In this document: piece by piece, positions 1,557 to 17,341 of the stretch
Layout: every line of letters begins with the position of its first letter
Position numbering within the stretch: position 1 is the first letter of the stretch
Source of the DNA: Calditrichaceae bacterium
Lineage (GTDB): Bacteria > Calditrichota > Calditrichia > Calditrichales > JBFXGD01
Assembly (NCBI GenBank): GCA_050178385.1
Contig: JBFXGD010000052.1
Coordinates: 1 to 21,348, forward strand
Direction of reading: 5' to 3'
Length of the DNA stretch: 21,348 nucleotides
Translations under genes and position numbers: made by a program
The notes under the pieces: generated by a model
Database searches by the model: none
What the model was told of the DNA's origin: nothing
What the model saw: the letters and a program-made list of their open reading frames with translations, nothing else

Positions 1557-4151
1557 ATGAATCTTATTACGAAAATTAAACCCAAATCACTATTCTATTC
1601 ACTCAATCAATTTAAAATTGTCAAAGACTATCAGCCATACCGTCAGGTTTTTTACGCTAAGGAAATTGTTGATCTGTATGCCAATTTTGTTTTTTACAAT
1701 AAGATGTTTGATGAAGAGGATTGGAGCGAGAGCATCACCGTGCGCCTGAACTTTCGTGATTATATGATAACGAAAGAAATCAAAATCATTGAAGTGCCTG
1801 TCAGTGTTTCTCAGGAAGAAAATATCGCTGTTGCCTCCTTTAAAATAATTGAAGATTGTAAACCGGATGAATGTCATGCCGGTGAATATTTCTGTGAAGT
1901 CGTTTATGAAGATGATGTATTGATTTCAGACAAATTTTATATCGATGACGTGCATACGCAGAAATTTAAACCGGAATCATTTTGCGATATTTTATCGCTC
2001 AAACTTTTTACCGGTGGCTCGGACGCTGATGAGTCGGCTGACCGAAGGGCTTATCTCTCACGTTTTTTTTATAAAGGTACCAGATATATCTGGGCGGAAC
2101 TTGAAATTACCAATATCCTTCCGCAAACCTGGCAGGGAGAGTTCATTTTCAGCTTCTACAATGACATAAGAGAACTTGCCGGGCAGGAACGTCGTATTGT
2201 GACGATTGACCATGAAAATCCAAACAGCGCCAATACCATTATGGCGGGGATAGGCTCCGATACAGAGATCACATGGGCGGAGGACAATTACACCGTCGAA
2301 ATCGTTTTCCTGAACCAACTTATTGCCACCGCCTTTTTTGAAGTCGGCAGTTCCAATTCAAGCAGCCCTCTAAAAACAATTATCCCGTCAAAAGAAAATC
2401 TCTCGTCAAAACGAACTACGACTATTGGCGCCGAGGAAACAATATTTGCTGAAATTGATCATCTGGTGGGGCTGCCTTATATCAAACAAAAACTGCATGA
2501 CCATTTTGGCTATGTCAAATACCTGAAACTTCGGAAAAATAAAGGATTAAGTTCGCTGGAAGACATTAATTTAAATTTTGTCTTCGCCGGTAATCCGGGG
2601 ACAGGTAAAACCAAAGTGGCCTTATTGCTGGGTAAAATCTATAAACAGCTTGGCTTACTTTCGAAAAGCTCTGTTTATGAAGTTGACAGATCAGATCTTA
2701 TCGGACGGTATATCGGAGATACCGCGCCGCTGACAAAGGAAGTCATCGAAAAAGCGCGTGGCGGCATATTATTTATCGATGAAGCATACGCGCTCTGGAG
2801 GGATGATGATAAGGACTTCGGGCGCGAATCAATTGAAATCCTGGTCAAGGAACTTTCAGACGGACCGGGAGATCTCGCGGTTATTGTCGCAGGCTACCCG
2901 AAAGAAATGAAGGAGTTTTTGGAATCAAACACGGGTTTGAAATCCCGCTTTAATTTTACATTTGAGTTTCCCGATTATACACCGGATGAGCTTATGGCAA
3001 TCGCGAAATTAATGCTTGCCGGTAAATCATTATTTATGACCGAAAAAGCGGAAGAAATTCTTTATAAAATGGTTGTCGAAGAATACAGGAAACGGGATAA
3101 ACATTTTGGTAACGCGCGGTATATCAATTCAATCATCGAAGAAGCACAGGTGAATCTTGGCTTGCGTATTGTCAGATCGGGCGCCGCGGGCGATGTTTCT
3201 GATACTGAATTATCTACAGTCACAGAGGATGATATCAGCAGGATCAGGCGAAATGTCGGTTCAAAATTTGTTGATCTTCCCATCAATGAGGAGTTGTTAA
3301 AAGATGCCATGGGCAGACTGAACCGGCTTGTCGGGCTTGAAAATGTTAAAAATACGGTTCGCGAGCTTGTAAAATTAGCCCGGTTCTACAAACAAAGCCA
3401 CAAGGTCCTGCTTAACTCCCTGTCACTTCATAATGTTTTTATCGGTAATCCTGGAACGGGTAAAACAACCGTCGCCAGGATTATCGCGGATATTTATAAG
3501 GCATTAGGGCTGCTGGAACGCGGACATCTGGTGGAGTGTTCGCGTGATTCGCTGGTTGCCGGATATATCGGTCAGACGGCGCTGCAAACCAAATCGATGC
3601 TTGAAGAATCCCTGGGAGGGGTTTTGTTTATCGATGAAGCATACTCTCTCTCCCAGGGGAACGGTGTAAGTGATTTTGGGCATGAAGCAATCGAAGTGCT
3701 TTTAAAATTTATGGAAGATAACAGAGGGGAGTTCGGAATAATTGCCGCGGGATACACCCAGGAGATGATAAAATTCCTTGAAACCAATCCAGGGTTACGT
3801 TCCCGTTTTGATAATATCATCTCGTTTGAAGATTTAAGCGCGGGAGATTTACTTTTGGTTGCCGAAAGAATTCTTGCCGAACGAAACATGCATTTTGAAA
3901 AAAAAGCAAAAATGCATCTTCAGAATTTTTTTGAGTTTCATTATTCAGAACGGGATAAATTTTTCGGAAACGCCCGGTTTGTCAGAAAGGTGGTTGACAG
4001 CGTTATTCGCAATCAGCATCTGCGTTTATCTGACATGTCACCGGATAAAAGAGATGATAAAACAATAAGAACCATCAAATTTGATGATGTTGATGACTTT
4101 GTTCCACAGAAGGATTTTGTTACGAGAAACAGAAAAAAAATAGGGTTTTAA
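1557..4151 (+). CDS. SpoVK/CbbX/EccA-type AAA+ ATPase with two tandem AAA modules and a duplicated N-terminal beta-rich domain
   Basis: 864 aa. Two copies of L.GL..(I/V)K, F.GNPGTGKT, pore loop GRYIG/AGYIG, Walker B LFIDEAY, AGY..EM..FL..N.GL.SRF and FGNAR. Ends in RKKIGF. Confidence 0.9.
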   Translation: MNLITKIKPKSLFYSLNQFKIVKDYQPYRQVFYAKEIVDLYANFVFYNKMFDEEDWSESITVRLNFRDYMITKEIKIIEVPVSVSQEENIAVASFKIIEDCKPDECHAGEYFCEVVYEDDVLISDKFYIDDVHTQKFKPESFCDILSLKLFTGGSDADESADRRAYLSRFFYKGTRYIWAELEITNILPQTWQGEFIFSFYNDIRELAGQERRIVTIDHENPNSANTIMAGIGSDTEITWAEDNYTVEIVFLNQLIATAFFEVGSSNSSSPLKTIIPSKENLSSKRTTTIGAEETIFAEIDHLVGLPYIKQKLHDHFGYVKYLKLRKNKGLSSLEDINLNFVFAGNPGTGKTKVALLLGKIYKQLGLLSKSSVYEVDRSDLIGRYIGDTAPLTKEVIEKARGGILFIDEAYALWRDDDKDFGRESIEILVKELSDGPGDLAVIVAGYPKEMKEFLESNTGLKSRFNFTFEFPDYTPDELMAIAKLMLAGKSLFMTEKAEEILYKMVVEEYRKRDKHFGNARYINSIIEEAQVNLGLRIVRSGAAGDVSDTELSTVTEDDISRIRRNVGSKFVDLPINEELLKDAMGRLNRLVGLENVKNTVRELVKLARFYKQSHKVLLNSLSLHNVFIGNPGTGKTTVARIIADIYKALGLLERGHLVECSRDSLVAGYIGQTALQTKSMLEESLGGVLFIDEAYSLSQGNGVSDFGHEAIEVLLKFMEDNRGEFGIIAAGYTQEMIKFLETNPGLRSRFDNIISFEDLSAGDLLLVAERILAERNMHFEKKAKMHLQNFFEFHYSERDKFFGNARFVRKVVDSVIRNQHLRLSDMSPDKRDDKTIRTIKFDDVDDFVPQKDFVTRNRKKIGF

Positions 4152-4199
4152 ATGGGTCTGCAAATGACAACTCTTTGCAAAAACTAAACAGGAAGACAA

Positions 4200-5933
4200 A
4201 TGAAAATTCGTGATTTGGAATGGTGGATTGTCGGAGTCTTGGGTATTATTGCATTCATACTTGCCATGATAGGTTTTAATATCATGTTTACTTGTGCCGG
4301 TATTGAAAGAAACATGCTGGATCTTGCTTTTCAGTCGATGAAAATTTTTGGGATGGAATTTGTAGATGAATTCGCGTCCCCTCTCCCGGTGCAGCTTGAA
4401 ATTGCCAGGTGGCTCGCGCCGTTGGTGGTGCTCTATACCGCGGCTAAGGCAATCATTTATTTTGTCCGGCGTGAATTTAGATCACTGCTGATTAAGTTTA
4501 ATAATGATCACATAATCATTACGTCACTGAATGACAAATCCAGATTTTTAATCAATGATTTGCTGGCAAAGAATGAAAAAGTAATCGTCGTCGCCTCTAT
4601 TGATTCTCCGGGAAAGCTGGATCTCATCGAAAAAGACGGGGCAATATTAATTGAAGGCAGCATATCTGATCAGAGATTTCTAAAAAACATCGCGGCGCAT
4701 AAAGCCAGGTATATGATGTTTATGGAGGATGATGATGAGAAGAATATTTCATCAGCCATATCGGTCTATCAGTTTCTGGAAAAATACGGTAAAGACAAAA
4801 TACAAACATTGTTTGTGCATGTGGCTGATGACCTGAAGCTAAATGAACTCAAAGAGCTGAGCTTTTTTGAAGAGTTTGCCAGCGGTAAAAATATCAATGA
4901 AGTTTGTGATATCAGAATATTTTCAATGAATGAGCGGACTTCACGGATATTGTTTAACAAATATTCCCCCGATATTTTTACTCCGGTGCATTCTTCCGAT
5001 GCTGCGCAGCTGCATGTGGCTTTGTTCGGATCGAATGATTTAACCCAAAGTATGATCATACGGCTCGCGAGACTGGGTAGGTACGCGAATTTAAAGAAGC
5101 TAAAGATTACTCTGTTTCACGAAGGTGACCGGATTGTAAATAAATTGAAAAACAGCTTCCCGGCCCTGAATCAACTGATTGATCTTGATCTGATCGACGC
5201 TCCCTTAGATATGTTTGATATTGAAATATTCGATAAAATACACATCGGACATCCGTTTTCGTCTGCATATATCCTATGCAAGGATGATGCGCTTTCCTCA
5301 TATATTTTAAATAAGCTTTCAAAAACAAAATCTGAAAATAAAATTGATGTTATCATTGGGCTGATGAATCCGGATGGCATATTAAATAAATGGTACACCG
5401 GAAGAATGCTGGAAAAAATAAATCTTCATAAATTCAATTTAATTGAAGAATCATTTACTAAAAACGCCATTATCTCCGAAGAAATTGATAAGCTGGCAAT
5501 GATTATTCATCAGGATTATTTAAGTAAACTAAAAAAGAGAGATCCCGCGAAACTTTCTCACCAGGACTGGGCCGCGCTTCCGGTAGATTTCAAAAATCAA
5601 AATCGTGAACAGGCCGATCATTTATATGTAAAATTGAGGGCGATGAATTGTGAAGCCCTGCTGTCCGGCCAGGAAAAAGGAAAGTCCGTCTCAATTTCAA
5701 ATGATTCTCCGTTTATGGAACTGCTTGCGGAAATGGAGCATGACAGATGGCAGGCGCATATGCTTTTAAACGGCTGGACCTATAACAAAACCCGCGATGA
5801 TCAAAAAAAGTATCATACCGACCTGGTACCATACAATCAGCTTAGTGAAGAAGTTAAAGACTGGGATCGAAATGCTATCGCGAATATGCCGGTGTTGCTT
5901 TCGAAGTTAGGATTTGTAATCCGGAAACTTTAA
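4200..5933 (+). CDS. Membrane protein: 2TM channel-like N-terminus + TrkA-N/RCK-like domains + C-terminal RyR domain
   Basis: 577 aa. Hydrophobic helices at aa ~8-30 and ~66-88 flank a pore-helix-like segment. RCK-like region HIIIT...LIEGSISDQRFL..I.AHKA...DDEKN. RyR signature LAEMEHDRW....LNGWTY....DD.KK.H.DLVPY.QL.EE.K..DR, preceded by a degenerate copy LA..IH..Y...W..L...FK..NR.QADH. Confidence 0.82.
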   Translation: MKIRDLEWWIVGVLGIIAFILAMIGFNIMFTCAGIERNMLDLAFQSMKIFGMEFVDEFASPLPVQLEIARWLAPLVVLYTAAKAIIYFVRREFRSLLIKFNNDHIIITSLNDKSRFLINDLLAKNEKVIVVASIDSPGKLDLIEKDGAILIEGSISDQRFLKNIAAHKARYMMFMEDDDEKNISSAISVYQFLEKYGKDKIQTLFVHVADDLKLNELKELSFFEEFASGKNINEVCDIRIFSMNERTSRILFNKYSPDIFTPVHSSDAAQLHVALFGSNDLTQSMIIRLARLGRYANLKKLKITLFHEGDRIVNKLKNSFPALNQLIDLDLIDAPLDMFDIEIFDKIHIGHPFSSAYILCKDDALSSYILNKLSKTKSENKIDVIIGLMNPDGILNKWYTGRMLEKINLHKFNLIEESFTKNAIISEEIDKLAMIIHQDYLSKLKKRDPAKLSHQDWAALPVDFKNQNREQADHLYVKLRAMNCEALLSGQEKGKSVSISNDSPFMELLAEMEHDRWQAHMLLNGWTYNKTRDDQKKYHTDLVPYNQLSEEVKDWDRNAIANMPVLLSKLGFVIRKL

Positions 5934-5951
5934 TCAGGGAGGATTGTAACG

Positions 5952-8900
5952 ATGCAAAAATCAATCTTTAATCTATATAAAAACAGAGAAGTCAGAGTAT
6001 TTATCTCTTCTACCTTCCGAGACATGATGGCTGAGCGGGAGTATCTTGTAAAAAAAGTATTCCCCGAATTGTGTAAAAAATACGCGAACCGGGGAGTAAC
6101 TATCACAGAGATTGATTTACGGTGGGGGGTTCTCGAGGAAGATGCGGAAAACGGAAAAGTGATTGATATCTGTCTTACGGAGATTGATCACAGCCGTCCC
6201 TATTTTATAGGAATTCTAGGAGAAAGATATGGCTGGATACCGGATCATTCGGAATATGATAAACACAAAAAAATAATTGAAAACTTTGGCTGGGTGGTAA
6301 AGGATATTGAAAACAATTTAAGCATAACGGAAATGGAAATTCAGTATGGGGTTTTAAGAAATCCAGGAATGATTGAAAGATCGGCGTTTTTTCTGCGGGA
6401 CAGTAAGAACGAATCTTCAATCGCATATAAAGAAACACCCGGTTCCGAAGAAGAGAATAAACTTAAGATTCTTAAGAATATTATTGAGAACAACCGGGAA
6501 CTAGAGAGTTCTTCATTTAATGATGCCGCTGAATTGGGAAAAAAAGTATTTGAACATCTCAGCAGGATTATTGAAGCGGACTTTCCGCTTCTGGATGAAA
6601 AGACAAAAAAGATTTTACCTCAGCTCAATTTTATTAATGCCCGGCGTAAAGTATATATCAAAGAAGAAAAATATTTTGGTTTAATATCCGATCATATTAA
6701 AAGAACATCTTCGCCCATAGTAATCACCGGTAAAACAGGCGCGGGAGCATCGTCACTTCTCGCAAACTACCTTGTTGAGTACGCTGAAAAAAATCCGGAT
6801 GATTTGTTGCTTTACAATTTTAGTAACGCCTCGGAAAATTCATCAAATTATATCCAGGTACTCAGGAGATTTTGTGAAGAATTGTCCGGAAGAGAAATCA
6901 ATCTGCAAGAAGAGTTTGCTGAAAACAGCGGCGAACAGCTAAAAAATTATCTGGATGAACTGATCACGCAAAAGGCGCCGCAAAATATTCTGATGGTTAT
7001 TGACGGATTGGATGAATTTGATAATGAGGATAATTCACTTCTGCTAAATTGGCTGTCGTACAGTTTTGATGATAACGCAAAGGTTATTGTGTCTTGCGGC
7101 GCGGGTGATTCGCTGGAGAGACTGAAGAAGAGAAGATATGAAGTGGTTTATATCACCGAACCGGATAAAGGTGCCAAAGAAAAATTTATTAACGATTATC
7201 TATCGGAATTTAGTAAAAAATTACCGTCTAAATATGTGGAAGCGATTGTTAGCGATGATATTTCGGAGCTGCCCCTGACCCTGAAGTCGTTTCTTGATGA
7301 ATTGCGTCAGTTCGGCCTGCATGAAGAGCTGGACAGTCAGATAAAATATTATACTTCCGCCGACGGGCCGGTTGAATTTTTTGACAGACTTCTACAGCGT
7401 CTGGAAACGGACTTTGAGGAGAACAAAAAAGGCCTGATTGAGGATATTTTTACGCTTTTGTACACTTCAGGAACCGGATTATCGGAAACGGAGATACTCT
7501 CAATACTTGAAATTCCGCCGCTTTACTGGACTCCGGTTTATAATGCCATTGAGAGCAATATCCTGAATATGAACGGACAGCTGAGGATTGCCCATAAGTA
7601 TCTATCCGACGCGGTCAAACAACGTTATTTAAAATCTTCTGAAAACCAGAAAAAAATTAGCGGAAAAATCATCACTTATTTTATCGAAGATATCCGTGAC
7701 TCACGGGCGGTTCAGGAAGTGGCGCACCAATATATATTATTAAATGATAAAAAAGGCCTATACGATTTTCTCTCGGCTATGGAGACGGTGATCAGTCTTT
7801 TTGTCAGCAGGGATAACGAGTTATTGCTTTTGCGGTACTGGGTCTGGTTATATCCCGATTATTCTCCAGGAGGTATTTACTCACCGACTCAGTTAATAGA
7901 TTTTATTGAAGCAAAAGAATATAATTTTAAAGAAGCCATCACTGTTATTACGGTATTTGGCTTGCTGTTTAAAAACCTGGGTATTTTGGATGTAGCCGAA
8001 GATTATTTTAAAACCGTTTATGTTTGGAGTAAAAAGCATCTGGATGAGCGTGATGATCTCATACGATCATCACTGGCCCGTCTTGTCTTAACAAATCTTG
8101 ATCTGAACAAAATTGAACAGGCCGAGAAATACGCCGGGGAGGCCGTTTTACTTTGCGATAAATATCTTGCCAAAGAAGACAGTAATTATATCGCTGCTTA
8201 TTCAAATCTTGGATTGGTTTTGTCGGCGAAGGAAAAGTATAGTGAAGCCATCGAAATTTACAAGGTGCTCCTGGAAATTATTGATGATGATGAAACAAAA
8301 ACAGAAAAATCAAAGCTCAGTATACTCAATAATCTTGCTACCGCATATTTTAATAATAATTTAATAGATGAATCAATCAAGATTTACATAGAGCTCATCA
8401 ATACAGGGGAAAATCTGTATGGCTCCGATCATGCCGAAAACATTATTCCGCTTAGCAATTTAGCTTTTATTTATTCTCAGATCGGTAAACATGAGGAAGC
8501 TCATGAATATTTTAACAAAGGTATTGAGATCTGCACAAAAACGTATGGAGAATCTCATCCGGAAACAATAAGCATCCTTTTCAATTTTATCGGCGTGCTT
8601 CTTTCCGAAGGAAATTATGATCTGGCGGGTTCATATTTAGATAATATCGAAACGATTCTGAAGCGGGAAAATATAAAAGGCGAAAAATTCGGTCAGCTGC
8701 TGCATTTGCGGGCACAATTATTTAGTTCAAAAGATGACTCCCAAAAAGCGATTAGCTTTGAAAAAGATGCATTAAAAATATTCACGGAAGAATTTGGGAT
8801 TGACCACAAAAATACGATAAACAGTCTTCAAAATCTTTCCGCATATTATTTGGAAGCTGATCAACTTGCTGAAGCTGAAGAAACGATCAGGAACACCGAA

Positions 8901-11336
8901 AATATTCTGCTGGATAAATCCGGGAAAAAGGATGTTCGTCTCGCTGAAGTGTATAACTTATATGGCGGATTATACAAAAATAAGGGAGAATTAGGATTAG
9001 CCGAAGAATATTTAGGTAAAGGCCTGGAATTAAGAATTGATATTCTTGGTGAAATGCATAAGGATACGATCAAGAATTTTCAAAATTATGCCGTAATTTT
9101 AATTGCAAATAATAAAATGGATCGGGCGATGGAGGTTGTTGAGTATAATTTAAAATTAAGCGAAGACAGATTTGGAAAAGATTCAATAAGATATTGTGAA
9201 AGCCTGGAATTGATGAATGAGATTCTATCCAGGCAAAAAGAATTTGACGCGCTCGAATCAAACTTGCTGCATATCTATGAATTTTACGGGAAAACCTATG
9301 GGCAGAATCACCGGATCACCTATAACACTCTGATCAGACTTATTAATGTAAAAAAAGAGTTGGGACATAAAGAGCAGGTTTTGGTGATGACTCCAAAAGC
9401 GATTGAAATTGCCAAAAGTATTTGGGATGAAGATGATAGCAATTATCAAAATTTGCTTCTCGACACAGGTATGAATTTCGCCAATGAAAAGGAATTTGAA
9501 AGAGCCATATCATTATTTGAAGAATTATACAAAATTCAGATCAGAAATTTCGGCAAATTTGACAGTCGGACCATCTTGACTTTGAATAATATCGCCGGGG
9601 CAAAAAAGCTAAACGGGGACATGAACGGCGCCGGGCGGGATTATGAAGAATTATTTGATTCAATCGGGAAAAACAAGACTCCGTACAATGACGAAATACT
9701 AACCTGTTTAAGTAACTATGCCAGAATTAGCCATGAACTCGGGGATCTGGATAAAGCGGACACAAACTATCGAAGTTGTTTTGAGAATGCATCGAAGATC
9801 CACGGTTTTACGCATGAGACTACCCTGGACCATTTAAATTATTTAGGGCAATTCTATAATAATACGGATCGGTTTGATGAGGCAGAAGCCTTATACAGAA
9901 GGTATCTTAATAATTTGACATCCGCGGATGAAGAAACAGAAATAGCACTCATTGAAGTTCTCAAATTATTAATCAACCTGATCGCGCCCCAAAAGGATTA
10001 CGAAGCGCTTGAGCCATTATTGCTAAGGCGCGCCGGATTGTCCGAAAAAATCTATGGCATAAACTCTGTCCGGACAGTCAGGGTTTTGCTGGTACTTTCC
10101 GTCAATTATCAGCTTAAAGAAGATTATCAGAACAGTGTCGCTATTCTCAACAGGATCGCAAAAGAATGCACATCTGAAACATTGTATGGCTCGGGTGATG
10201 AATATGTTCAGATTTACAATGATTTAATCACTTTTTACAATGGAAAAGATACTGAGCAAAAGGAAGAAGCGCCCGCCGATGAAAGCTGGAAAGAAAAAAC
10301 GGATCAAAATAAAAAACTAATTGAACAAGCGGAAAGCGAAGGCGATACCCGCCGGACACTGGAAATATTGGCGGATAATATCGAACTGTACGAGAAGCAT
10401 CAGGGGGCTGAGCATCCTGATACAGTCTTTTGCAAGCGTGATTACGCGAATAAACTCATCGAGATTGACCAGTTCGAATTCGCGGGCAAAATTCTTGAAG
10501 AGGTTTTGGGCATTTTAAAAAACACTTTAGGCGTAAATCATACAGAATATACATTAACGCTTTATTCACTTGCCAAAGCACAAAAAGGTTTGGGTAAATT
10601 TGACGATGCTCTCGCGGGATTTAAGAAAGTAAAAGATCAGGCTGCCGCTGGCCTCGAAAGCAATCACCCGTTTTTGTATGAGATCAACAAAAAAATTGCC
10701 GACACATATTTTGTGATGTTTAAAAATGAAGAAGCATTACGAATATTTAACACTCTCCTGGAAATGATTCCTGAAGAGAACGGCATTGAAAGAGCATATA
10801 TCATACTGCAGATCGGACAGTTATATATACGGCTGGAAATGTATGACGATGCCATAAAATATCTAAGCAAAGCAGAACAATTTTATGATGGGCAGTTTAA
10901 AGAAAATAATCCTTATTCCATTATGATTCCGGATCTGTTGGCGTTTATATATTGGAAAAAAGATGAACTTGAAGCCGCTGAAAAATATTATTGTCAGGCG
11001 GTGGAGAACGCCAGAAAAATGCTCCCGCCCGAACATCCGGCGTACATAAAAACCATCAAAACTATGGCGCTCTTTTATTTTAATAACAATAGATTTAGCG
11101 AATCATTGACCTATCACAATGAATTGTTGAATAATTATATTCAGACTTATTCCGGGAAAGATCAAATTGTTGTCGAACAAAAATTAACCGTCGCGCTGAT
11201 ATATCATAATCTGGAGATGCACAGAGAAGCCGTTGGTTTGTTAAAGGAATCCATCGAAGCCGAACCGGAAGTTTTATCTGAAAACGCTCAAAAAATGATG
11301 ATGAATTTGTATAATTTTTATTCGAAAGGTGATTGA
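5952..11336 (+). CDS. DUF4062 (TIR-like) + STAND/NACHT-type P-loop NTPase + long kinesin-light-chain-type TPR array (NPHP3/TEP1-like architecture)
   Basis: 1794 aa. RVFISSTFRDM..ER..L, DLRWG, ICL.EI...PYFIGILGERYG and SITEMEI.YG mark DUF4062. P-loop region VITGKTGAGASSLL, Walker B MVIDGLDE, winged-helix-like GLSETEI. Many ~42-aa G.DHP.T...L.NL...Y repeats follow. Strong RBS AGGGAGGA at 5936-5943. Confidence 0.88.
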   Translation: MQKSIFNLYKNREVRVFISSTFRDMMAEREYLVKKVFPELCKKYANRGVTITEIDLRWGVLEEDAENGKVIDICLTEIDHSRPYFIGILGERYGWIPDHSEYDKHKKIIENFGWVVKDIENNLSITEMEIQYGVLRNPGMIERSAFFLRDSKNESSIAYKETPGSEEENKLKILKNIIENNRELESSSFNDAAELGKKVFEHLSRIIEADFPLLDEKTKKILPQLNFINARRKVYIKEEKYFGLISDHIKRTSSPIVITGKTGAGASSLLANYLVEYAEKNPDDLLLYNFSNASENSSNYIQVLRRFCEELSGREINLQEEFAENSGEQLKNYLDELITQKAPQNILMVIDGLDEFDNEDNSLLLNWLSYSFDDNAKVIVSCGAGDSLERLKKRRYEVVYITEPDKGAKEKFINDYLSEFSKKLPSKYVEAIVSDDISELPLTLKSFLDELRQFGLHEELDSQIKYYTSADGPVEFFDRLLQRLETDFEENKKGLIEDIFTLLYTSGTGLSETEILSILEIPPLYWTPVYNAIESNILNMNGQLRIAHKYLSDAVKQRYLKSSENQKKISGKIITYFIEDIRDSRAVQEVAHQYILLNDKKGLYDFLSAMETVISLFVSRDNELLLLRYWVWLYPDYSPGGIYSPTQLIDFIEAKEYNFKEAITVITVFGLLFKNLGILDVAEDYFKTVYVWSKKHLDERDDLIRSSLARLVLTNLDLNKIEQAEKYAGEAVLLCDKYLAKEDSNYIAAYSNLGLVLSAKEKYSEAIEIYKVLLEIIDDDETKTEKSKLSILNNLATAYFNNNLIDESIKIYIELINTGENLYGSDHAENIIPLSNLAFIYSQIGKHEEAHEYFNKGIEICTKTYGESHPETISILFNFIGVLLSEGNYDLAGSYLDNIETILKRENIKGEKFGQLLHLRAQLFSSKDDSQKAISFEKDALKIFTEEFGIDHKNTINSLQNLSAYYLEADQLAEAEETIRNTENILLDKSGKKDVRLAEVYNLYGGLYKNKGELGLAEEYLGKGLELRIDILGEMHKDTIKNFQNYAVILIANNKMDRAMEVVEYNLKLSEDRFGKDSIRYCESLELMNEILSRQKEFDALESNLLHIYEFYGKTYGQNHRITYNTLIRLINVKKELGHKEQVLVMTPKAIEIAKSIWDEDDSNYQNLLLDTGMNFANEKEFERAISLFEELYKIQIRNFGKFDSRTILTLNNIAGAKKLNGDMNGAGRDYEELFDSIGKNKTPYNDEILTCLSNYARISHELGDLDKADTNYRSCFENASKIHGFTHETTLDHLNYLGQFYNNTDRFDEAEALYRRYLNNLTSADEETEIALIEVLKLLINLIAPQKDYEALEPLLLRRAGLSEKIYGINSVRTVRVLLVLSVNYQLKEDYQNSVAILNRIAKECTSETLYGSGDEYVQIYNDLITFYNGKDTEQKEEAPADESWKEKTDQNKKLIEQAESEGDTRRTLEILADNIELYEKHQGAEHPDTVFCKRDYANKLIEIDQFEFAGKILEEVLGILKNTLGVNHTEYTLTLYSLAKAQKGLGKFDDALAGFKKVKDQAAAGLESNHPFLYEINKKIADTYFVMFKNEEALRIFNTLLEMIPEENGIERAYIILQIGQLYIRLEMYDDAIKYLSKAEQFYDGQFKENNPYSIMIPDLLAFIYWKKDELEAAEKYYCQAVENARKMLPPEHPAYIKTIKTMALFYFNNNRFSESLTYHNELLNNYIQTYSGKDQIVVEQKLTVALIYHNLEMHREAVGLLKESIEAEPEVLSENAQKMMMNLYNFYSKGD
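7930..11250 (+). repeat. Protein-level TPR repeat array (roughly two dozen 42-aa-type units, estimated from length) inside the DUF4062-STAND gene
   Basis: Recurrent YGSDHAEN, YGESHPET, FGIDHKNT, LGEMHKDT, YGQNHRIT, HGFTHETT, QGAEHPDT, LGVNHTEY, LPPEHPAY motifs. Boundaries approximate. Confidence 0.8.
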
Positions 11337-11367
11337 GTATTCGGTTAAAAAATACTCTTAAACTATT

Positions 11368-14307
11368 ATGCCAGAGAATATTGACAAGACAATACGCATT
11401 GATGATTCAGATTCGGAAACTAAGCCGGATAATACCATCCGGATAGACGAGAGCAGCTCGCGGGATTTGGATCAGACGATTAGAATGGATCATAACTCCG
11501 TCATTAAATCCGGTCTGGGCGGGGGTATTTCGGCAAAGGCAAACCGACATAATTTGTATGATTTGAATGGCAGAGAATACCGCGTATTAAGAAAAATCTC
11601 CGAATCTACTTCCGAGGCTCAAATATTTTTAGTCGAAATAGATGGCGGACAGTATATTCTCAAATATTATTATCCCTTCATCAAACCCAAACAGGAAGTG
11701 ATCAATAAATTAAGGTCTTTGTCACATCCGGATATCATCTCCGTTTTGGATTCCGGCTATTACGAAGAGCGGTTTTTTGAGATATTGACATACGCTGATC
11801 AGGGTTCACTTGCTGAACATATCCCGATTAAAAATATTAAAAAAATTAAGAAGTATGTGACGGAAATTTCAAACGCCTTAAAATTTTGTCATGACAACGG
11901 GATCATTCATCGGGATATAAAACCTTCAAACATATTCCTGAAGGATAAAAGTAAAAACGATGTGCTTGTGGGTGATTTCGGGATCGCGTCGATTGTCAGT
12001 GATGGCGAAGAATTAAGAAGGACAACCACCTTCCAGACGCCGGTGTACGCGGCGCCGGAATTTAAATTATCGTTAAGGGGCGAAACGATCATCACTAAAG
12101 CGGTTGATTATTACGCGCTCGGGATATCCGTCTGGGAGATGTACAGCGGGGTCATACCGCCGGACGGAATGGATGATCTGGAATTTCTGCGTGAAATGTT
12201 TGAGGGTGAACCCCCTCTGCCGGCAGATATGAATGAGGAAATTGCCAATCTCATCAAGGGATTAACGGTTCGGAATTATAAAAAAAGATGGGGATATGAG
12301 GAAGTCGGCAAATGGCTGAAAGGTGAATATGTTGAAATACATACCGAAATTAACGATGAATCCGGGGCTGTATTCGATTTCGGTGAGGATGATAAGGGAA
12401 AGACGCTTGTCGCCGGCAATCCGCAGGAATTAGCCAAACTGATTTATCGGTATCCCGATTTAGGGAGAAAGCATCTATACCGGGGCACCATAAAAGACTG
12501 GCTGAAAAAAACCGGTAATCAAAGATTGTTGATTGAAGTTGCTGATATCACCGAATATATTTATAAGGATGATGAGAAAACTGGTACAAATTACGCGGTA
12601 TATATTCTTGATAAAAACTTTCCGTTTTATTCACTTTCCAATAAACCGCTCAGAACAAAAAAGGAACTGGTTGATGAATTAAGACTAAACTGGAAAGTTT
12701 ACACACCGGAACTTAAGGATCCCAATCATAAATTATATCTGTATCTTCAGTCAAAAATCGCGCGTGATGATGTCGAAAAATTTAGAGAATGCTATAAACA
12801 AAAAAAAGATGAATACGCATTCTATAACATACTGTACACTCTTGAGTTTTCCTATGACAAGAATGCTCCGTTCGCTATCTTTACAAGGGGGGTTCTAAAA
12901 ACACTCATTAGATCACTGGAAGAATTATCCGGGTATTTTTTGAAAAATTGTTCAACAAGAAAGTCATTGTTTCTCAGCGCCGATTTCTGGGTTTGGCTTG
13001 AGTTCAAAGACCGGGAAATAGTATCCACCCTTCAAGAACTATTCAAAGAAGAAGACGGAGCGAGTAAAAATCTTCTTGGCCAGCTGCCTTATCTGATTTC
13101 ACCGGATTCAGGGTATAAAGGATTAAAGGGGAATGAAATATTTCCTTTTCAGGATTTCGGTAAAGAATTCTATGAAAATTTTGAAGCGTATAAAAAGATA
13201 TTCAAGAATGAGGAAAGCGAGATATTTTATTATCTAAAGTCGAAAAACCTACCCGGTGAGATATCTTTTATACAAAAATGTTTTAATCCCGACAACAAGC
13301 CGACTCCATTTAATGAAAATCTGGCGATGATTAAAATCATCAAGGGATTTGAGTATGATTTGCCTTATGTGAATAAGAGTGATTACTTTTTTTCCCCCGA
13401 TGAATTAATGGCCTCTCTGAAAGGCTCTTCCAGGATTAAAGAGGAACTATCGGATCAGGCTTCCTTTCTAAACATGTGGTTATCTGTGTTTTTCCACGAA
13501 CAGCCGCTAAGTGATGACAGAAAATTTTACATCTATTACCGGGATGATTTTGATAAACAGCTTGAAAAATATTTAGTTTTTATCAAAAAACTTCACAAAA
13601 AAAATGAGATTTCCGGGCGGTATGAAACCGCGAAGAATAAAGTAAAAAGTATCCAGAATAAATACAGCAGGATTGGCTCAAACCGTGTTATAAAAAATAT
13701 TTTCTATTATGGATTGCCTCTGATACCGGCTGTCTTGCTGGTATTATATTCGGTATTTTCAGAAAATAATCCCCTGCCTGCGAATATCTTTAACGTGGGT
13801 CAATGGTATTTTATACCGGTAGCCCTTCTGGTCACGGGTTATTTGTTCAAAGTCATGCATGACAATAATGAAATGGAGTTCAGTACCGGGTGTGTTGGCG
13901 GGCCGGTTCTCGGACTAATTGTCGCTGTTATCTTGTATTATGTTTCTCTTTTCATCATATCTGTTCCACTACTTCTGGTGATAACCCTGGGGATAACATT
14001 CTATTTTATATTCAAAAAATTATATTATCTGATAAAAGAGTATTCTGAAGCCCTGAATAGCGAGAAATCCTATGTTGATATGGATGGCATTAATGATTTG
14101 GTTTATTCCTACACTTTTAAGAAAAAAAATAACATATCCGTTTATGAATCAGAAGGTTTAAAAGAGGCGCATAGTTATACTAAATCAATAAGGCTGAAAG
14201 TATGGGCAATGTTATTGACACCGGCGTTATTCCTAAGCGCAATCGTGTTATTGCTTGTTTATTATAGCCCGGAATTAAACTTATTAAAAATATTAAAAGG
14301 TCAGTAA
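11368..14307 (+). CDS. Hanks-type Ser/Thr protein kinase with internal ~83-aa repeats and a C-terminal multi-pass membrane region
   Basis: 979 aa. YILK99 (VAIK-equivalent lysine), HPDII, HRDIKPSN, GDFG, TPVYAAPE, DYYALG and subdomain XI arginine in YKKRW. About 5 hydrophobic helices in aa ~778-966. Confidence 0.92.
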   Translation: MPENIDKTIRIDDSDSETKPDNTIRIDESSSRDLDQTIRMDHNSVIKSGLGGGISAKANRHNLYDLNGREYRVLRKISESTSEAQIFLVEIDGGQYILKYYYPFIKPKQEVINKLRSLSHPDIISVLDSGYYEERFFEILTYADQGSLAEHIPIKNIKKIKKYVTEISNALKFCHDNGIIHRDIKPSNIFLKDKSKNDVLVGDFGIASIVSDGEELRRTTTFQTPVYAAPEFKLSLRGETIITKAVDYYALGISVWEMYSGVIPPDGMDDLEFLREMFEGEPPLPADMNEEIANLIKGLTVRNYKKRWGYEEVGKWLKGEYVEIHTEINDESGAVFDFGEDDKGKTLVAGNPQELAKLIYRYPDLGRKHLYRGTIKDWLKKTGNQRLLIEVADITEYIYKDDEKTGTNYAVYILDKNFPFYSLSNKPLRTKKELVDELRLNWKVYTPELKDPNHKLYLYLQSKIARDDVEKFRECYKQKKDEYAFYNILYTLEFSYDKNAPFAIFTRGVLKTLIRSLEELSGYFLKNCSTRKSLFLSADFWVWLEFKDREIVSTLQELFKEEDGASKNLLGQLPYLISPDSGYKGLKGNEIFPFQDFGKEFYENFEAYKKIFKNEESEIFYYLKSKNLPGEISFIQKCFNPDNKPTPFNENLAMIKIIKGFEYDLPYVNKSDYFFSPDELMASLKGSSRIKEELSDQASFLNMWLSVFFHEQPLSDDRKFYIYYRDDFDKQLEKYLVFIKKLHKKNEISGRYETAKNKVKSIQNKYSRIGSNRVIKNIFYYGLPLIPAVLLVLYSVFSENNPLPANIFNVGQWYFIPVALLVTGYLFKVMHDNNEMEFSTGCVGGPVLGLIVAVILYYVSLFIISVPLLLVITLGITFYFIFKKLYYLIKEYSEALNSEKSYVDMDGINDLVYSYTFKKKNNISVYESEGLKEAHSYTKSIRLKVWAMLLTPALFLSAIVLLLVYYSPELNLLKILKGQ

Positions 14308-16811
14308 TGTCGTTAGTCTGCAGTAAATGTAAAGCCGAGAACCGGGTCAGCGCGAAATACTGCAAAGCTTGCGGTAGAGCGATTGAGAAACAAATGTATT
14401 CCGGCCTGGATGATGTAATTGGCCGTGAGGATATTAAAGCGACTTTAAACCGGGTTGTTAAGTCAATCGCGCAATTTAAAAAGGGCTGGAACGGCGAACT
14501 TGAATTTAATAAAAATATGATCATTACCGGAAATTCCGGTACCGGCAAAACGAGTTTGGTTCTCTCGATCGCTGATCTGTTTTACAATGAAAATATAACC
14601 GGTAAAAAGCAATGTGTCATTGTTGACGCTTCGGAGTTCGAAGAATTTATTGCGAATATAGAGACTGAATATGCAAAGGCCAAAGACGGAATTCTGTTTA
14701 TTGATAATTTCCATAAAATAGTTAACGGCTCAAATAATGCGGGGCCGGCTGATGTGGATAAACTGATCTACAGAATGGGAAAGGATGGAGCCAATCCGAT
14801 CGTTATTGTAGCCGGAAATCCATCAGAAATCGATAATTATTTTATGAACAACGCTTCTGCAAAAAACAGATTCGAATTTAGCTTCAGATTGTATGATTTT
14901 ACTTCGGCGGAACTGTACGACATATGTAAACAACGCATCGAGAAAGTTGGATTACGGTTGAACGAAAAATCTGCCAACAAACTCTCGTGGCTATTTAAAT
15001 ACAAAGTTAAAACCAAAGATGCCTCCTTTGGGAATGCTCACTATGCTCTGAACGTGGCTGAAGATATTACTTTAGCGTATTATCACCGGATATCTCTCGG
15101 ATCCAGCGATGATAAAATAATTATTGAATCGGATATAACAGAAAATGTACCAAAACAGAAAACGTTAAATGAAATATTCTCTGAACTTGATTCATACGTG
15201 GGCCTGGAGAAAGTAAAGGCCGCCATACATGATATTGCTCTGCAAATAAAAAATCAGCAGAAATTAGAATCTAAGGGTAAAAAGGAAAAACTGCAGTTTG
15301 GATTTCATATGGTGCTTACGGGTAATCCCGGCACCGGCAAAACGATGCTTGTAAGAAAACTGGGAGAAGTCCTTTCGGCGATCAATTATCTTGACCGTGG
15401 CCATGTGGTTGAGGTGGATAAGAGCAAGCTGGTCGGACAGTTTATTGGATCGACGCCTCAGATTGTTCAAAAAAGATGCGACGAGGCCATGGGGGGAATT
15501 CTTTTTATCGATGAAGCCTATGCTCTTGCTCCCAAGGCGGGAGACGCCAATCAATTTGGGCAGGAAGCAATTGAAACCCTGCTTAAACGAATGGAAGATG
15601 ACCGGGACAAATTTGTCGTTGTTGCCGCCGGATACAGAAATGAGATGCAGCACTTCATCAATGCCAATCCTGGGTTAAGAGGCAGATTTGACAGATTTAT
15701 TCATCTTGATGATTATAATCCGGATGAGCTCGTTGAGATATTCAAATTTCTCTTAAACAAAAGTAATTATTCCATGTCACCGGAGGCGTACGCTAAACTT
15801 CCCGAAATCATCAATGAACTTTATGAAAAAAGGGAAAAAATTTTTGCTAACGGCAGGGAAGTGAGAAAATTGTTTGAAGAAACCGTTATAAATTTATCAA
15901 AAAGAGTATCATGTCTCCGAAGTGAGGAGCAAACATATGATAGAATGACGAGAATAGAATCCGCGGACTTTCCTATACAGATTGAAAAAAATGACAACCT
16001 GGATGATATATTTAAGGAGTTAAATTCTCTGGTCGGGCTGCGGAATATTAAGGGCGAATTCGAAAAATTAGTTTCTTATGTAAAAGTGGAGCAAAAGCGG
16101 AAAGAACTTGGCGGTGAGTACGGCGGATTAAGTAACCATTTTGTATTTATGGGAAATCCCGGAACAGGAAAAACCACTGTAGCCAGACTGCTCGGTAAGA
16201 TTTTTAAATCTCTGGGAGTGCTGACAAAAGGTCATGTGATTGAAGTTGACAGATCCGGACTCGTTGCGCAGTTCGTCGGCCAGACATCAGCCAAAACAAA
16301 TGAAGTGATTGATTCAGCCATGGGCGGGGTTCTTTTTATTGATGAAGCATATTCCTTAATCGTAAACGATTCAAAGAACGACTTCGGAAAACAGGCAATA
16401 CAAGCATTATTAAAAAGGATGGAAGATGATGCCGATAGGTTTGTTGTAATAACCGCCGGTTATCCGAAGGAGATGGATGAATTTATTAATTCAAATCCCG
16501 GCCTGAGCTCACGATTTAAGAGGAAAATACAATTTCCAGATTATAATCCGGATGAACTTTTTGAGATATTTAAATTAATGATGAATAAAAAAAGGTTGCG
16601 ATTGACGGATGATGCAGGCAAAAAGGCAAAAAATTTATTTGTTCAGATATATGAATCGCGGGGAAAAAATTTCGGAAATGGCAGAATGGTGAGAAATATT
16701 TTTGAAGCTACGTTGGAAAATCAAAGTTTTCGGGTGGCGCGGTTATTAAACTCGCCTGATTTGGATAAAGATACTCTCTACAAAATTGAAGCGGAGGATG
16801 TTCAATATTGA
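14307..16811 (+). CDS. Zinc-ribbon + triple SpoVK/CbbX-type AAA+ ATPase (first module degenerate)
   Basis: 834 aa. N-terminal CSKC-x10-CKAC. Three Walker A motifs (GNSGTGKT, GNPGTGKT x2). Walker B motifs FIDNF (degenerate) and FIDEAY x2. FGNA/FANGR/FGNGR motifs. Starts in a TAATG overlap with the kinase stop. Confidence 0.9.
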   Translation: MSLVCSKCKAENRVSAKYCKACGRAIEKQMYSGLDDVIGREDIKATLNRVVKSIAQFKKGWNGELEFNKNMIITGNSGTGKTSLVLSIADLFYNENITGKKQCVIVDASEFEEFIANIETEYAKAKDGILFIDNFHKIVNGSNNAGPADVDKLIYRMGKDGANPIVIVAGNPSEIDNYFMNNASAKNRFEFSFRLYDFTSAELYDICKQRIEKVGLRLNEKSANKLSWLFKYKVKTKDASFGNAHYALNVAEDITLAYYHRISLGSSDDKIIIESDITENVPKQKTLNEIFSELDSYVGLEKVKAAIHDIALQIKNQQKLESKGKKEKLQFGFHMVLTGNPGTGKTMLVRKLGEVLSAINYLDRGHVVEVDKSKLVGQFIGSTPQIVQKRCDEAMGGILFIDEAYALAPKAGDANQFGQEAIETLLKRMEDDRDKFVVVAAGYRNEMQHFINANPGLRGRFDRFIHLDDYNPDELVEIFKFLLNKSNYSMSPEAYAKLPEIINELYEKREKIFANGREVRKLFEETVINLSKRVSCLRSEEQTYDRMTRIESADFPIQIEKNDNLDDIFKELNSLVGLRNIKGEFEKLVSYVKVEQKRKELGGEYGGLSNHFVFMGNPGTGKTTVARLLGKIFKSLGVLTKGHVIEVDRSGLVAQFVGQTSAKTNEVIDSAMGGVLFIDEAYSLIVNDSKNDFGKQAIQALLKRMEDDADRFVVITAGYPKEMDEFINSNPGLSSRFKRKIQFPDYNPDELFEIFKLMMNKKRLRLTDDAGKKAKNLFVQIYESRGKNFGNGRMVRNIFEATLENQSFRVARLLNSPDLDKDTLYKIEAEDVQY

Positions 16812-17341
16812 TTTGTCCATATTGTTTAAAAGAGATTGACGATGATTCGGCTTACTGCGATCAATGCGGTGGAGAGTTGTTTGTCTGTCCGGTATGCGGA
16901 AAAACGGGCAGGGAAATGGTTTGTGAAGATGATCATGTAAAATATATTTCGGTAAGCGGTAACAAAAAGATTGCAATTGGAAACTTCTTCAAAACAGAAA
17001 GAATCGACAAGATACCGCATTCAGAATCAAAGATTGAAGCGCCCGGACTTATTTTTTCAAACAAAAATATCGGAATTGATCTCAGGATGGTGAACGATGA
17101 TATCATCGGAAGAAAAAGTAAAAAATTTTCTGACATCCTTGGAAACTATAAACAGATATCAGGCAGTCATGCCAAGGTGAATTTTAGTTCAGGCTCGGGA
17201 TGGACTATCATTGATTTAAATTCATCAAACGGTACAATATATAATGATAAAAAATTGGTGCCGTTTGAGTCGGTTAAATTGCAGAATGAAACTTTTATCA
17301 CCCTCGCCGACATTGAGTTTTATGTCTTGATTGACAATTGA
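16808..17341 (+). CDS. Double zinc-ribbon + FHA domain protein
   Basis: 177 aa. CPYC...CDQC and CPVC...CEDDH knuckles. FHA signature IIG101R102, IS118GSH121A, DLNSSN141GT. TTG start overlaps the upstream TGA (TTGA), with GGAGGA RBS at ~16793-16798. Confidence 0.88.
   Translation: MICPYCLKEIDDDSAYCDQCGGELFVCPVCGKTGREMVCEDDHVKYISVSGNKKIAIGNFFKTERIDKIPHSESKIEAPGLIFSNKNIGIDLRMVNDDIIGRKSKKFSDILGNYKQISGSHAKVNFSSGSGWTIIDLNSSNGTIYNDKKLVPFESVKLQNETFITLADIEFYVLIDN

Follow-up and report, generated by a model that had tools for sequence, protein, structure and literature searches.

A six-gene Calditrichaceae operon uniting a TIR-like sensor, an RCK/RyR channel-like protein and a kinase/FHA/AAA+ cassette: a candidate nucleotide-signalling immune system

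A six-gene operon lies in a 21,348-nucleotide (nt) stretch of DNA, called the window here, from a Calditrichaceae bacterium (GenBank assembly GCA_050178385.1, contig JBFXGD010000052.1, positions 1 to 21,348 of the forward strand). Its genes, g1 to g6, encode two multi-module AAA+ ATPases (g1 and g5), a channel-like protein with RCK and RyR domains (g2), a large sensor-like protein with DUF4062, STAND and TPR parts (g3), a membrane Ser/Thr kinase (g4) and a zinc-ribbon protein with an FHA domain (g6). An initial annotation of this DNA had described six co-oriented genes with three short gaps, two overlaps and minus-strand flanks, and the list of open reading frames (ORFs) agrees with it exactly: the spacers g1/g2, g2/g3 and g3/g4 are 48, 18 and 31 bp long, and g4/g5 and g5/g6 overlap by 1 and 4 nt. 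Every domain named in that annotation was recovered by Pfam (Table 1). The TIR/NIR and RyR-RCK pair, fused with a kinase/FHA/AAA+ cassette, looks like an undescribed nucleotide-signalling immune system, with a function that we infer.

Table 1. Genes and domains of the operon, with positions in the window
Feature	Position	Strand	Length or residues	Description	Basis
g1	1557-4151	+	864 aa	N-terminal region (residues 1-~265) with two modelled beta-sandwich domains, followed by two SpoVK/CbbX-type AAA+ + AAA_lid_6 modules	
g2	4200-5933	+	577 aa	Channel-like RCK/RyR protein	
g2, predicted pore part	4200-4493	+	1-98	Transmembrane helix TM1 (2-32), short pore-type helix (39-50), TM2 (64-98)	AlphaFold2 model
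g2, RCK part	4512-5459	+	105-420	Two Rossmann-type RCK domains	Pfam TrkA_N 2.9e-5, AlphaFold2 model, Foldseek
g2, RyR part	5481-5927	+	428-576	Two RyR repeats (Repeat12-like, helical)	Pfam RyR (PF02026) E=3.3e-14
g3	5952-11336	+	1794 aa	NIR-STAND-TPR protein	
g3, NIR (DUF4062) domain	5985-6458	+	12-169		Pfam PF13271 E=3e-15; phmmer to TEP1 PDB 11gz_A E=2.9e-25
g3, STAND P-loop NTPase	6699-7241	+	~250-430		Pfam NPHP3_N 6.2e-11, AAA_22, NACHT
g3, TPR_12/TPR_10 array	8019-11291	+	~690-1780 (~1100 residues)		TPR_12 E=7.7e-76, 10 stretches
g4	11368-14307	+	979 aa	Membrane Ser/Thr Hanks kinase	Pkinase E=3.2e-35
g4, N-terminal tail	11368-11547	+	1-60	Three T-I-R-[IM]-D repeats	
g4, post-kinase helical region and C-terminal membrane anchor	12355-14304	+	330-979	Defines a larger receptor-type kinase family	
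g5	14307-16811	+	834 aa	N-terminal zinc ribbon and three SpoVK/CbbX-type AAA+ modules	
g6	16808-17341	+	177 aa	Double zinc ribbon and FHA	
g6, FHA domain	17102-17305	+			E=4.1e-13

The sensor-like and channel-like proteins

The TPR array of g3 is presumed to be its ligand-sensing part, and the N-terminal domain is its putative enzyme. According to the main texts of three 2026 preprints, DUF4062, renamed NIR, is a TIR-like NADase that yields ADP-ribose (ADPR) and nicotinamide and in which a single glutamate is essential; such domains protect against phage, Avs2 and further NLR-like proteins with repeats at the C-terminus being among the cases (10.64898/2026.09.04.749371; 10.64898/2026.05.01.722283; 10.64898/2026.06.25.731849). 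The initial annotation had taken DUF4062 for a TIR-like, nucleotide-processing effector, and these experiments back it. The motif S-I-T-E127-M-E129 of g3 aligns with S-V-T-E-M-E of TEP1 and sets E129 opposite the Glu at position 115 of the 220-residue chain. To judge from the alignment and the published construct (886-1113), this position would be the catalytic residue E1008 of TEP1 if the chain spans 894-1113 (10.64898/2026.09.04.749371, main text). The E129 column holds Glu in seven of eight related sequences; that of the first Glu (E127) is not kept. No other DUF4062 gene than g3 was found in the source genome.

The Walker A motif of g3 reads GKTGAGAS, with Ala in place of the canonical Lys and a Lys four residues earlier, and its Walker B motif reads LMVIDGLDE. 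In the eight sequences aligned, GKTGAGAS is common to the window, the sister genome (L011) and L028, and the canonical GK[ST] is found in L019a, L019b, L037, L040a and L040b. The sensor repeats vary among relatives: WD40 takes the place of TPR in the second copy of L019 and in L040, and both of these loci have duplicated sensors. On its sequence features g3 passes as a NIR-NLR, a class of immune sensors that cleave NAD+, with NADase activity predicted, and g3 alone falls into the NADase-NLR defence class described in 2026.

For g2, an AlphaFold2 model based on 34 homologues reached a predicted local distance difference test score (pLDDT) of 87.3 and a predicted template modelling score (pTM) of 0.82. 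A Foldseek search of the PDB with this model returned CASTOR/DMI1, GsuK (including NAD- and ADP-bound entries), TrkA, Slo1 and Slo2.2, with E values of 2e-8 to 1e-5, and matched the C-terminus to Repeat12 of human RyR3 across ~188 columns. At the sequence level, the RyR part matched the RyR protein of B. thetaiotaomicron (3NRT, 5.7e-13) and the phage protein RyDEP (35TM, E=0.0017 over residues 511-554). The fold of g2 is confidently modelled as a two-helix pore, a tandem-RCK gating ring and a RyR Repeat12 domain. The pore loop, KIFGMEF(VDEF), is variable among relatives; R70 is invariant and LEIARWLAP at the start of TM2 nearly so. Prediction of residues 1-102 in four copies gave complex scores of 0.16 and 0.02 against a mark of 0.42 and was used neither way.

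The RyR part of g2 has the ligand residues of its phage relatives. H514, W517, H539 and D556 are spaced +3, +25 and +42, identical to the ligand residues of RyDEP (H75, W78, H100, D117) and RyR Tad (H129, W132, H154, D171), as given in the available text of two preprints (10.64898/2026.05.28.727677; 10.64898/2026.06.04.730250). Through this His/Trp/His/Asp set, the same text reports, the phage proteins bind 2'cADPR, 3'cADPR, cyclic ADPR (cADPR) or an ADPR product. In the 34-sequence alignment of g2, E513, H514, R516 and W517 are invariant, and D556 is conserved in at least 90%. A search of a phage collection with the RyR part of g2 returned two unannotated records alone, at 43-44% identity.

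Gene neighbourhoods and the two modules

The pairing of g2 with g3 recurs outside the window genus. The g2 sequence was searched in 401 genomes of the class of G043, a Bacteroidetes metagenome-assembled genome (MAG), and PF02026 in 401 genomes of its phylum; 8 and 26 genomes matched, and their neighbourhoods were inspected. A g2-type gene was defined by TrkA_N plus RyR and a length of ~560-620 aa. A TIR_2 or DUF4062 gene lies within two genes and on the same strand in 9 of the 12 lineages that have a g2-type gene, a count that overstates independence, some of the lineages being kin (G456/G477, G118/G098). The gaps between the two genes are mostly at most 32 bp, or the genes overlap. The TIR-superfamily neighbour is a DUF4062-STAND gene in the window genus, L019, G043, G308 and G251; it is TIR_2 fused to a Fib_succ_major domain in G407, TIR_2 fused to Cds6_C in G289 and TIR_2-WD40 in G456, and in G617 the order is TIR_2, WD40, channel gene. 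The lineages without such a neighbour are G118, G098 and G477; the loci of the first two stand on cut contigs of 7.1 and 5.6 kb, and G098 was checked by tblastn alone, not by Pfam.

As a control, TIR_2 and DUF4062 genes were counted genome-wide. The adjoining gene is the sole TIR_2 gene found in G407, G289 and G617, and the sole DUF4062 gene found in G000, G043 and G308. Both DUF4062 genes of G251 lie inside the locus, one of the two TIR_2 genes of G456 adjoins, and two of the three TIR_2 genes of G206 follow a RyR protein; G477 has no DUF4062 gene genome-wide. These results demonstrate a coupling of the TIR/NIR and RCK/RyR gene types that holds in distant genomes even as the sensor part changes (TPR, WD40, others).

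Two further observations concern RyR genes. The loci of G456 (L103) and G477 (L104) are syntenic (GH2, GNAT, RCK/RyR, ..., menaquinone gene); G477 is without a TIR gene and its RyR match is weak, and the pair may be decaying there. In addition, proteins of ~880-918 aa that combine a weak P-loop NTPase signal with two RyR repeats at the C-terminus were seen at eight loci, L093-L100 (G571, G610, G637, G703, G688, G631, G694, G559). Of the 401 genomes of the Bacteroidota phylum, 14 with sizes of 2.5-3.0 Mb carry this family, and G251 (4.8 Mb) has a 906-aa copy; the neighbours of the family look housekeeping.

All six genes of the operon are kept under purifying selection, since the ratio of nonsynonymous to synonymous substitution rates (dN/dS) between the window and the sister genome (L011, Calditrichaceae) is 0.05-0.20 for all of them. 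Related loci were drawn from the alignment of the g4 post-kinase part, which was searched in 5.8 billion proteins and gave six clusters. Two loci of the same genus (L011, L018) hold all six genes and the same flanks. A 150-kb metagenome contig (L019), at 46% identity for g4 and 47% for g2, carries g1, g2, a DUF4062-STAND-TPR gene, a DUF4062-STAND-WD40 gene, g4, g5 and g6. In G043 the locus is split over two contigs, L028 with g1, g2 and the g3 N-terminus and L014 with the g3 C-terminus and g4. The gene order is kept in these distant relatives, and the arrangement is therefore not a chance juxtaposition. Of 41 related genomes only two have full-length g4, that of the window itself and a second from its genus. 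The distribution is patchy.

The junction of g3 and g4 is kept in four of the five lineages of the close g4 family, down to 46% identity; the spacer is 31 bp in the window, 16 bp in L019 and 46 bp in L014, and in L012 an ORF for the TPR C-terminus overlaps the g4 start. The Melioribacteraceae lineage (L013, L020) has a g1-like gene, a 73-aa ORF (L020 319-540) and then g4-g5-g6. The first 11 residues of this ORF are the g2 N-terminus, and g2 was not found in the Melioribacteraceae genome with the window g2 as query. The ORF is read as a deletion scar, with g2 and g3 lost secondarily and g1 and g4-g6 retained.

The cluster is built from two modules, A (g2 and g3) and B (g1 and g4-g6). The order Ser/Thr kinase (STK), multi-AAA+, Zn-ribbon-FHA is found in seven loci beyond the window genus, in full in L013, L019, L015, L021, L023 and L025 and partially in L022. 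Further genes accompany it: L021 (near-duplicate L015) has an STK, a split-off transmembrane protein, a 3-module AAA+ protein, an ankyrin/WG protein, Zn-ribbon-FHA, PP2C and a double-zinc-ribbon protein; L023 has STK-TPR, a 4-module AAA+ protein, FHA, PP2C, a double-zinc-ribbon protein and a second STK; and L025 has two STKs, an ankyrin protein, AAA+, FHA, PP2C and a double-zinc-ribbon protein. Relatives lie in MAGs titled Calditrichaceae, Bacteroidetes and Melioribacteraceae, and distant module B also in one titled Treponemataceae. This spread over several groups points to horizontal transfer.

Within module B, the kinase g4 has the catalytic motifs K99, HRD (181-183) and DFG (203-205), all invariant in six sequences, and an atypical glycine-rich loop; from these motifs it is predicted to be catalytically competent. 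Its C-terminus has about four transmembrane segments, with transmembrane-like stretches at 774-792, 837-874 and 943-961. T8, T23 and T37 of the N-terminal tail are invariant in six family members, and the tails of distant module-B kinases carry similar T-x-x-[IL]-[DE] repeats, e.g. TVIIED and TQIID (TIRID in the window). FHA domains commonly favour a Thr that has a hydrophobic residue in the +3 position. Because the invariant Thr residues and the hydrophobic +3 position fit this preference, the tail repeats, TxxΦ(D/E), are the best candidates for docking sites of the g6 FHA domain. That domain has the motifs IGR, SGSH and NG, and GR, SxxH and NG are the phosphothreonine-binding residues of FHA domains; besides g6, no FHA gene was found in the source genome.

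A phmmer search with g4 residues 330-979 against 1.84 billion representatives gave 242 matches at E<=1e-3, 19 of them at E<=1e-30. Thirty of 34 sampled relatives of this region have an N-terminal Pkinase domain, and some have extra C-terminal WG-repeat, YARHG, TonB_C, FKBP or SH3 (SH3_3) domains. By these matches g4 is assigned to a sizeable unnamed family of receptor-type kinases. In L021 (1351-4193) the kinase is split into a 696-aa soluble kinase and a 244-aa coiled-coil/transmembrane protein, which are fused in g4. Window and sister genome are identical over a 1200-nt tract of g4, window 11968-13167 (codons 201-600); synonymous divergence (dS) is 0.5-1.5 in the remainder of g4 and in the genes around it. 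The tract stems either from recent recombination or from a chimeric MAG assembly.

Walker A and B are intact in four of the five AAA+ modules of g1 and g5. In g1, Walker A (GNPGTGKT) stands at 345 and 630 and Walker B (ILFIDEA/VLFIDEA) at 404 and 689, and both modules are intact; in g5, Walker B of module 1 is FIDN (Glu to Asn) and modules 2 and 3 are intact. The g1 N-domain belongs to no family and has only five protein clusters. The AlphaFold2 model of g1 (pLDDT 65, pTM 0.37; N-terminal blocks 70-88) was too weak and too AAA+-dominated for a fold search, and ESM Atlas returned for the N-domain unnamed clusters only, at 0.82, below lead level. Elsewhere in the source genome (94% complete) there are 10 SpoIIE-type PP2C genes and none of PF13672.

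A proposed signalling route and its alternatives

Our preferred reading, with a probability of roughly one half, is that the operon encodes a composite anti-invader, most likely anti-phage, signalling system of two joined modules; the functional links between its parts, the ligand, ion conduction and the direction in which module B acts are proposals. The TPR array of g3 would bind an invader- or stress-derived ligand, after which the STAND core would oligomerise and the N-terminal NIR domain cleave NAD+. The ADP-ribose-type product, or a cyclic variant, would bind the RyR Repeat12 domain of g2 and so open or perturb its GsuK/CASTOR-like pore with the tandem-RCK ring. Ion leak on top of NAD+ loss may then lead to growth arrest or aborted infection. 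Module B would act as a phospho-switch: g4 would phosphorylate the TxxΦ(D/E) repeats of its own N-terminal tail, g6 would dock on the phosphorylated tail, and docked g6 would position the AAA+ remodellers g5 and g1, which could license or disassemble (reset) the sensor-channel assembly.

The initial annotation had already made g2 an effector. The reading of g2 as an effector coupled to the DUF4062 enzyme gains strong support from two observations that this annotation did not have: the RyR domain is an ADPR/cADPR-binding module, and RCK/RyR genes recur beside TIR/DUF4062 genes; the coupling itself we infer. The interpretation of the annotation is largely in line with the 2026 evidence apart from the regulatory layer: that kinase, FHA and AAA+ proteins form a threshold or reset layer is purely conjectural. 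The proposal can be carried further. Bacteria would then encode an ion channel that is gated via RyR Repeat12 when a TIR-like NADase next to it releases its ADP-ribose-type product; this would be a prokaryotic equivalent, and possibly the origin in evolution, of the long-debated cADPR-RyR axis, and phage RyR sponges would be copies of host receptors. In the window clade the pair would stand under a kinase/FHA/AAA+ layer by which an NLR-type sensor is licensed or reset. This extended form is tentative, and we doubt it more than we credit it. We know of no bacterial NLR under kinase/FHA/AAA+ control.

Several observations weigh against a composite signalling system of this kind. T-V-G-Y-G is the K+ selectivity filter motif, and g2 does not have it; none of the 34 aligned sequences has GYG at that place. 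The glycine motif of RCK1 is degenerate in the window lineage (HIIITSLN), compared with ICGLG in distant relatives. The Ala at the canonical Walker A position of g3 is a further difficulty, as loss of this lysine would block activation in most NLRs; speculatively, a missing P-loop lysine would fit a sensor that relies on external ATPases. No PP2C gene was found in the cluster by a Pfam scan of the window. Outside the g2 type, the ~900-aa P-loop proteins with two RyR repeats have a DUF4062-STAND gene nearby at one of eight loci, and small RyR proteins have a TIR-superfamily gene nearby at none of five. The nature of the ligand is also at issue. According to the main text of the NIR preprint, NIR domains yield linear ADPR, and no other ADPR derivatives were made by TEP1. 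RyR-domain binding, by the available text of the phage studies, was measured with cyclic ADPR isomers, the linear ADPR in RyDEP being a bound cleavage product (10.64898/2026.05.28.727677; 10.64898/2026.06.04.730250). The NIR product is linear whereas the phage proteins were measured with cyclic compounds, and the ligand is therefore the weakest link of the proposed mechanism. The same preprints state in the available text that animal Repeat12 binds ATP and ADP, and that H/W/H/D is conserved across PF02026 and is not special to g2; g2 is therefore a typical ligand-binding member, and these residues do not indicate which ligand it binds.

The modular build of the operon allows a different view, in which two independent systems are merely linked: g2 and g3 would be a self-sufficient NADase/channel defence pair inserted in or near an unrelated envelope-signalling operon, with no interaction between them. 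We consider this unlikely, although it retains a real share of the probability. Each module occurs without the other, module B with PP2C and a double-zinc-ribbon protein, and an ankyrin protein among the companions, in L021, L023 and L025, and module A in six lineages (G308, G407, G289, G251, G617, G456). Homologues of g2 form 74 clusters and far outnumber those of g4 (6) or the g1 N-domain (5), and most instances of module A are therefore probably without module B. The Melioribacteraceae lineage dropped g2 and g3 and kept g1 and g4-g6 (in L020 g1, an 11-codon g2 remnant and g4), and module B has thus outlived the loss of module A; moreover, many relatives of the g4 post-kinase region carry C-terminal domains of envelope-sensor type (WG repeats, YARHG, TonB_C, SH3_3). 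However, the A pair is enclosed by the B genes, with g1 on one side and g4 on the other, and does not stand beside them, and the short-spaced g3-g4 junction persists through four of the five lineages already described. Module B of the window clade has also lost the PP2C, double-zinc-ribbon and ankyrin genes, and a rewiring of the module is therefore suggested.

A non-immune role, in which the circuit reads internal NAD+/ADPR or energy state along with signals from the envelope and, like many bacterial STK/FHA pathways, governs ion homeostasis, dormancy or development, is in our judgement quite improbable. The cluster does not lie in an evident defence island: in the ~38 kb of sister-genome flanks that were scanned no known defence system was found and the genes are housekeeping apart from one HigB/Gp49-HTH pair, which also counts against an immune system, and PADLOC names no system for the cluster. 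GsuK-type RCK channels are physiological regulators gated by NAD, ADP and Ca2+, going by PDB entry titles, and animal Repeat12 has been proposed as a metabolic sensor (phage RyR preprint, available text). TEP1 was the sole NADase among four human DUF4062 proteins tested (NIR preprint, main text), and so not every DUF4062 domain is an enzyme. Yet g3 keeps the catalytic Glu, and DUF4062/NIR genes are enriched near defence genes and were defensive in every bacterial case tested, according to the main texts of the 2026 preprints. An immune role is also favoured by genus-level patchiness, with relatives in MAGs of other groups, and by variable sensor repeats (TPR vs WD40, with the duplicates in L019 and L040), which are typical of arms-race receptors. 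The cluster might also serve secretion or the cell envelope as an accessory machine whose EccA/SpoVK-like ATPases are controlled by Thr phosphorylation, after the manner of the PpkA-Fha1 pathway of type VI secretion systems (T6SS) or the Esx-linked Esr pathway. In favour of this, g1 and g5 do score on the EccA and SpoVK models of NCBIfam, but their high totals are sums over two to three repeated AAA modules. The set of STK, FHA and AAA+ proteins resembles the Esr pathway (PMC13622651, available part) as well as that of T6SS, but the MoxR and vWA proteins of Esr are absent from the cluster, and neither the window nor any of the related loci scanned showed secretion structural genes. We hold this explanation to be very improbable; as a secretion system, the cluster was rejected on the ground that structural genes were seen in no scanned locus.

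Relation to known systems and the flanking sequences

As the initial annotation had supposed, the cluster matches no named defence system: PADLOC-DB v2.0.0 gave partial, generic domain-level hits only (IetA, DolB, TRIP13, mad6, mad8, PD-T4-6, MkoA), and none for g2 and g6. The proteins closest to g3 are NIR-NLR defence proteins such as PsAvs2 (Le Mouellic et al. 2026, 10.64898/2026.09.04.749371), Swarozyc (10.64898/2026.05.01.722283) and Evangelion (10.64898/2026.06.25.731849), with which it shares, by the main texts, an N-terminal NIR domain with the Glu, a STAND NTPase and C-terminal TPR. The canonical Walker A of that class, GxxxxGK[ST], differs from that of g3 at the Lys. The published systems are single-gene (Vesta has two genes), whereas g3 lies in a conserved six-gene operon. 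The main texts of the three DUF4062 preprints do not mention RyR, TrkA, AAA or a channel partner, and 'kinase' appears in the Swarozyc text only for the authors' earlier work and in a reference. Their figures and supplements, among them Swarozyc Fig. S1G ('selected operons') and the tree of the NIR paper, lie beyond those texts and may already show RyR/TrkA, kinase or AAA+ partners, which limits the claim of novelty.

Thoeris offers the nearest parallel to the g2/g3 pair: a TIR-superfamily enzyme gene stands beside a gene with an ADPR-type-nucleotide-binding domain, with variable sensor and constant receptor. Thoeris consists of the TIR signal synthase ThsB and the effector ThsA with its cADPR-isomer-binding domain; at g2/g3-type loci the enzyme is often NIR-STAND and not ThsB. 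The g3 NIR domain is TIR-like but of a family separate from ThsB-type TIR, and distant RCK/RyR loci carry TIR_2/ThsB_TIR genes. The receptor in Thoeris is SLOG-SIR2 or Macro-TM, in contrast to the RyR Repeat12 fused to a pore and RCK ring in g2, and Pfam gave no SLOG, SIR2 or Macro match in any of the six proteins. A literature search found no paper linking Thoeris with a host RyR effector and no description of a host RyR-domain effector; the only papers on the topic were the two on phage RyR proteins. Those phage proteins, RyDEP and RyR Tad, share with g2 the family PF02026 and the H/W/H/D spacing, but in the available text they are small soluble proteins that sponge or cleave host cADPR signals, whereas g2 is host-encoded and has two repeats, a membrane pore and RCK. 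With GsuK, MthK, CASTOR/DMI1 and Slo channels, the modelled g2 shares a two-helix pore with a pore helix and two RCK domains per subunit (Foldseek E 2e-8 to 1e-7, probability 1.00); it differs from these RCK-gated channels by the lack of TVGYG, the degenerate RCK1 motif of the window lineage and the added C-terminal RyR Repeat12.

Module B has likenesses of its own. The Thr-phosphorylation pathway PpkA-PppA-Fha1(-ClpV) of T6SS is an STK/PP2C/FHA threat-signalling cassette, and its membrane STK, FHA reader and AAA+ ATPase resemble those of module B. The Esr system of Actinobacteria shares the same three components, and PP2C occurs in distant module-B relatives; many EsrG forms are FHA readers with zinc fingers (PMC13622651, available part). 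The ATPases of Esr and T6SS cassettes are of MoxR or ClpV type, whereas those of module B are multi-module proteins of SpoVK/CbbX type, with no vWA and no secretion genes; a further difference is that the candidate phospho-sites of module B fall within the N-terminal tail of the kinase itself. CbbX, SpoVK and EccA share the AAA plus AAA_lid_6 module with g1 and g5 but have a single one, compared with two per chain in g1 and three in g5, which add a beta-sandwich (g1) or zinc-ribbon (g5) N-terminus. The window has no Rubisco, sporulation or ESX genes. The literature search found no description of the six-gene set, nor of a cassette of SpoVK/CbbX, FHA, PP2C and zinc-ribbon proteins, and CbbX and SpoVK are unmentioned in Kaur et al. 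2020.

Three features appear to be new. The recurrent host gene pair of a TIR/NIR enzyme and an RCK channel-like protein with RyR Repeat12 is one; by the available text, binding of cyclic ADP-ribose immune signals by Repeat12/RyR was shown in 2026 in phage proteins only (10.64898/2026.05.28.727677; 10.64898/2026.06.04.730250). A host RyR receptor, if true, adds an ion-channel effector to Thoeris-like signalling and would explain the origin of the phage sponges, and a g2-type protein would be a small, tractable test of Repeat12 channel gating by ADPR/cADPR, which is debated for animal ryanodine receptors. Another is the signalling cassette of a receptor kinase with tail TxxΦ(D/E) repeats, Zn-ribbon-FHA, 2-4-module AAA+, PP2C and a double-zinc-ribbon protein, whose kinase family has hundreds of members. 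The third is the fusion of the pair and the cassette in one operon, which suggests active, energy-dependent control of an NLR-type sensor.

The nearest clear neighbours of the cluster are on the minus strand, a GreA/Rnk-like gene (460-876) and a 607-aa ORF (17897-19720). The GC content of the window is 35-44%, with no sharp shift at the cluster edges. Scans of the window with Rfam and for tRNA genes found nothing, and promoter and terminator scans stayed at shuffle level (63 vs 56.7 in shuffles and 21 vs 16.6, respectively). The 680 bp upstream of g1 (877-1556), probably the operon's regulatory region, contain solely a 121-aa ORF with a TTG start (1015-1380) that belongs to no family; it is 82% conserved at the protein level in the sister genome, compared with 97% for the adjoining GreA-like gene. 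The 607-aa protein matches no Pfam, NCBIfam or PADLOC family and has relatives of 53-72% identity in eight other genomes of the order; with the window's own and a same-genus genome, 10 of 41 related genomes carry it. Flank synteny is restricted to the genus: elsewhere the neighbours of this gene are not syntenic, and insertion into an empty site was not demonstrable.

The ~38 kb of sister-genome flanks hold MurA/MurB, NadCAB, ArgR, RNase E/G and L21 genes and one HigB/Gp49-HTH pair, the only conflict-type element there. This pair, a Gp49/HigB-like gene with HTH_3 (L059 3961-4726), lies ~3.3 kb upstream of g1, outside the window, and is likely a toxin-antitoxin module. The NadC-NadA-NadB operon lies ~14 kb downstream in the sister genome.

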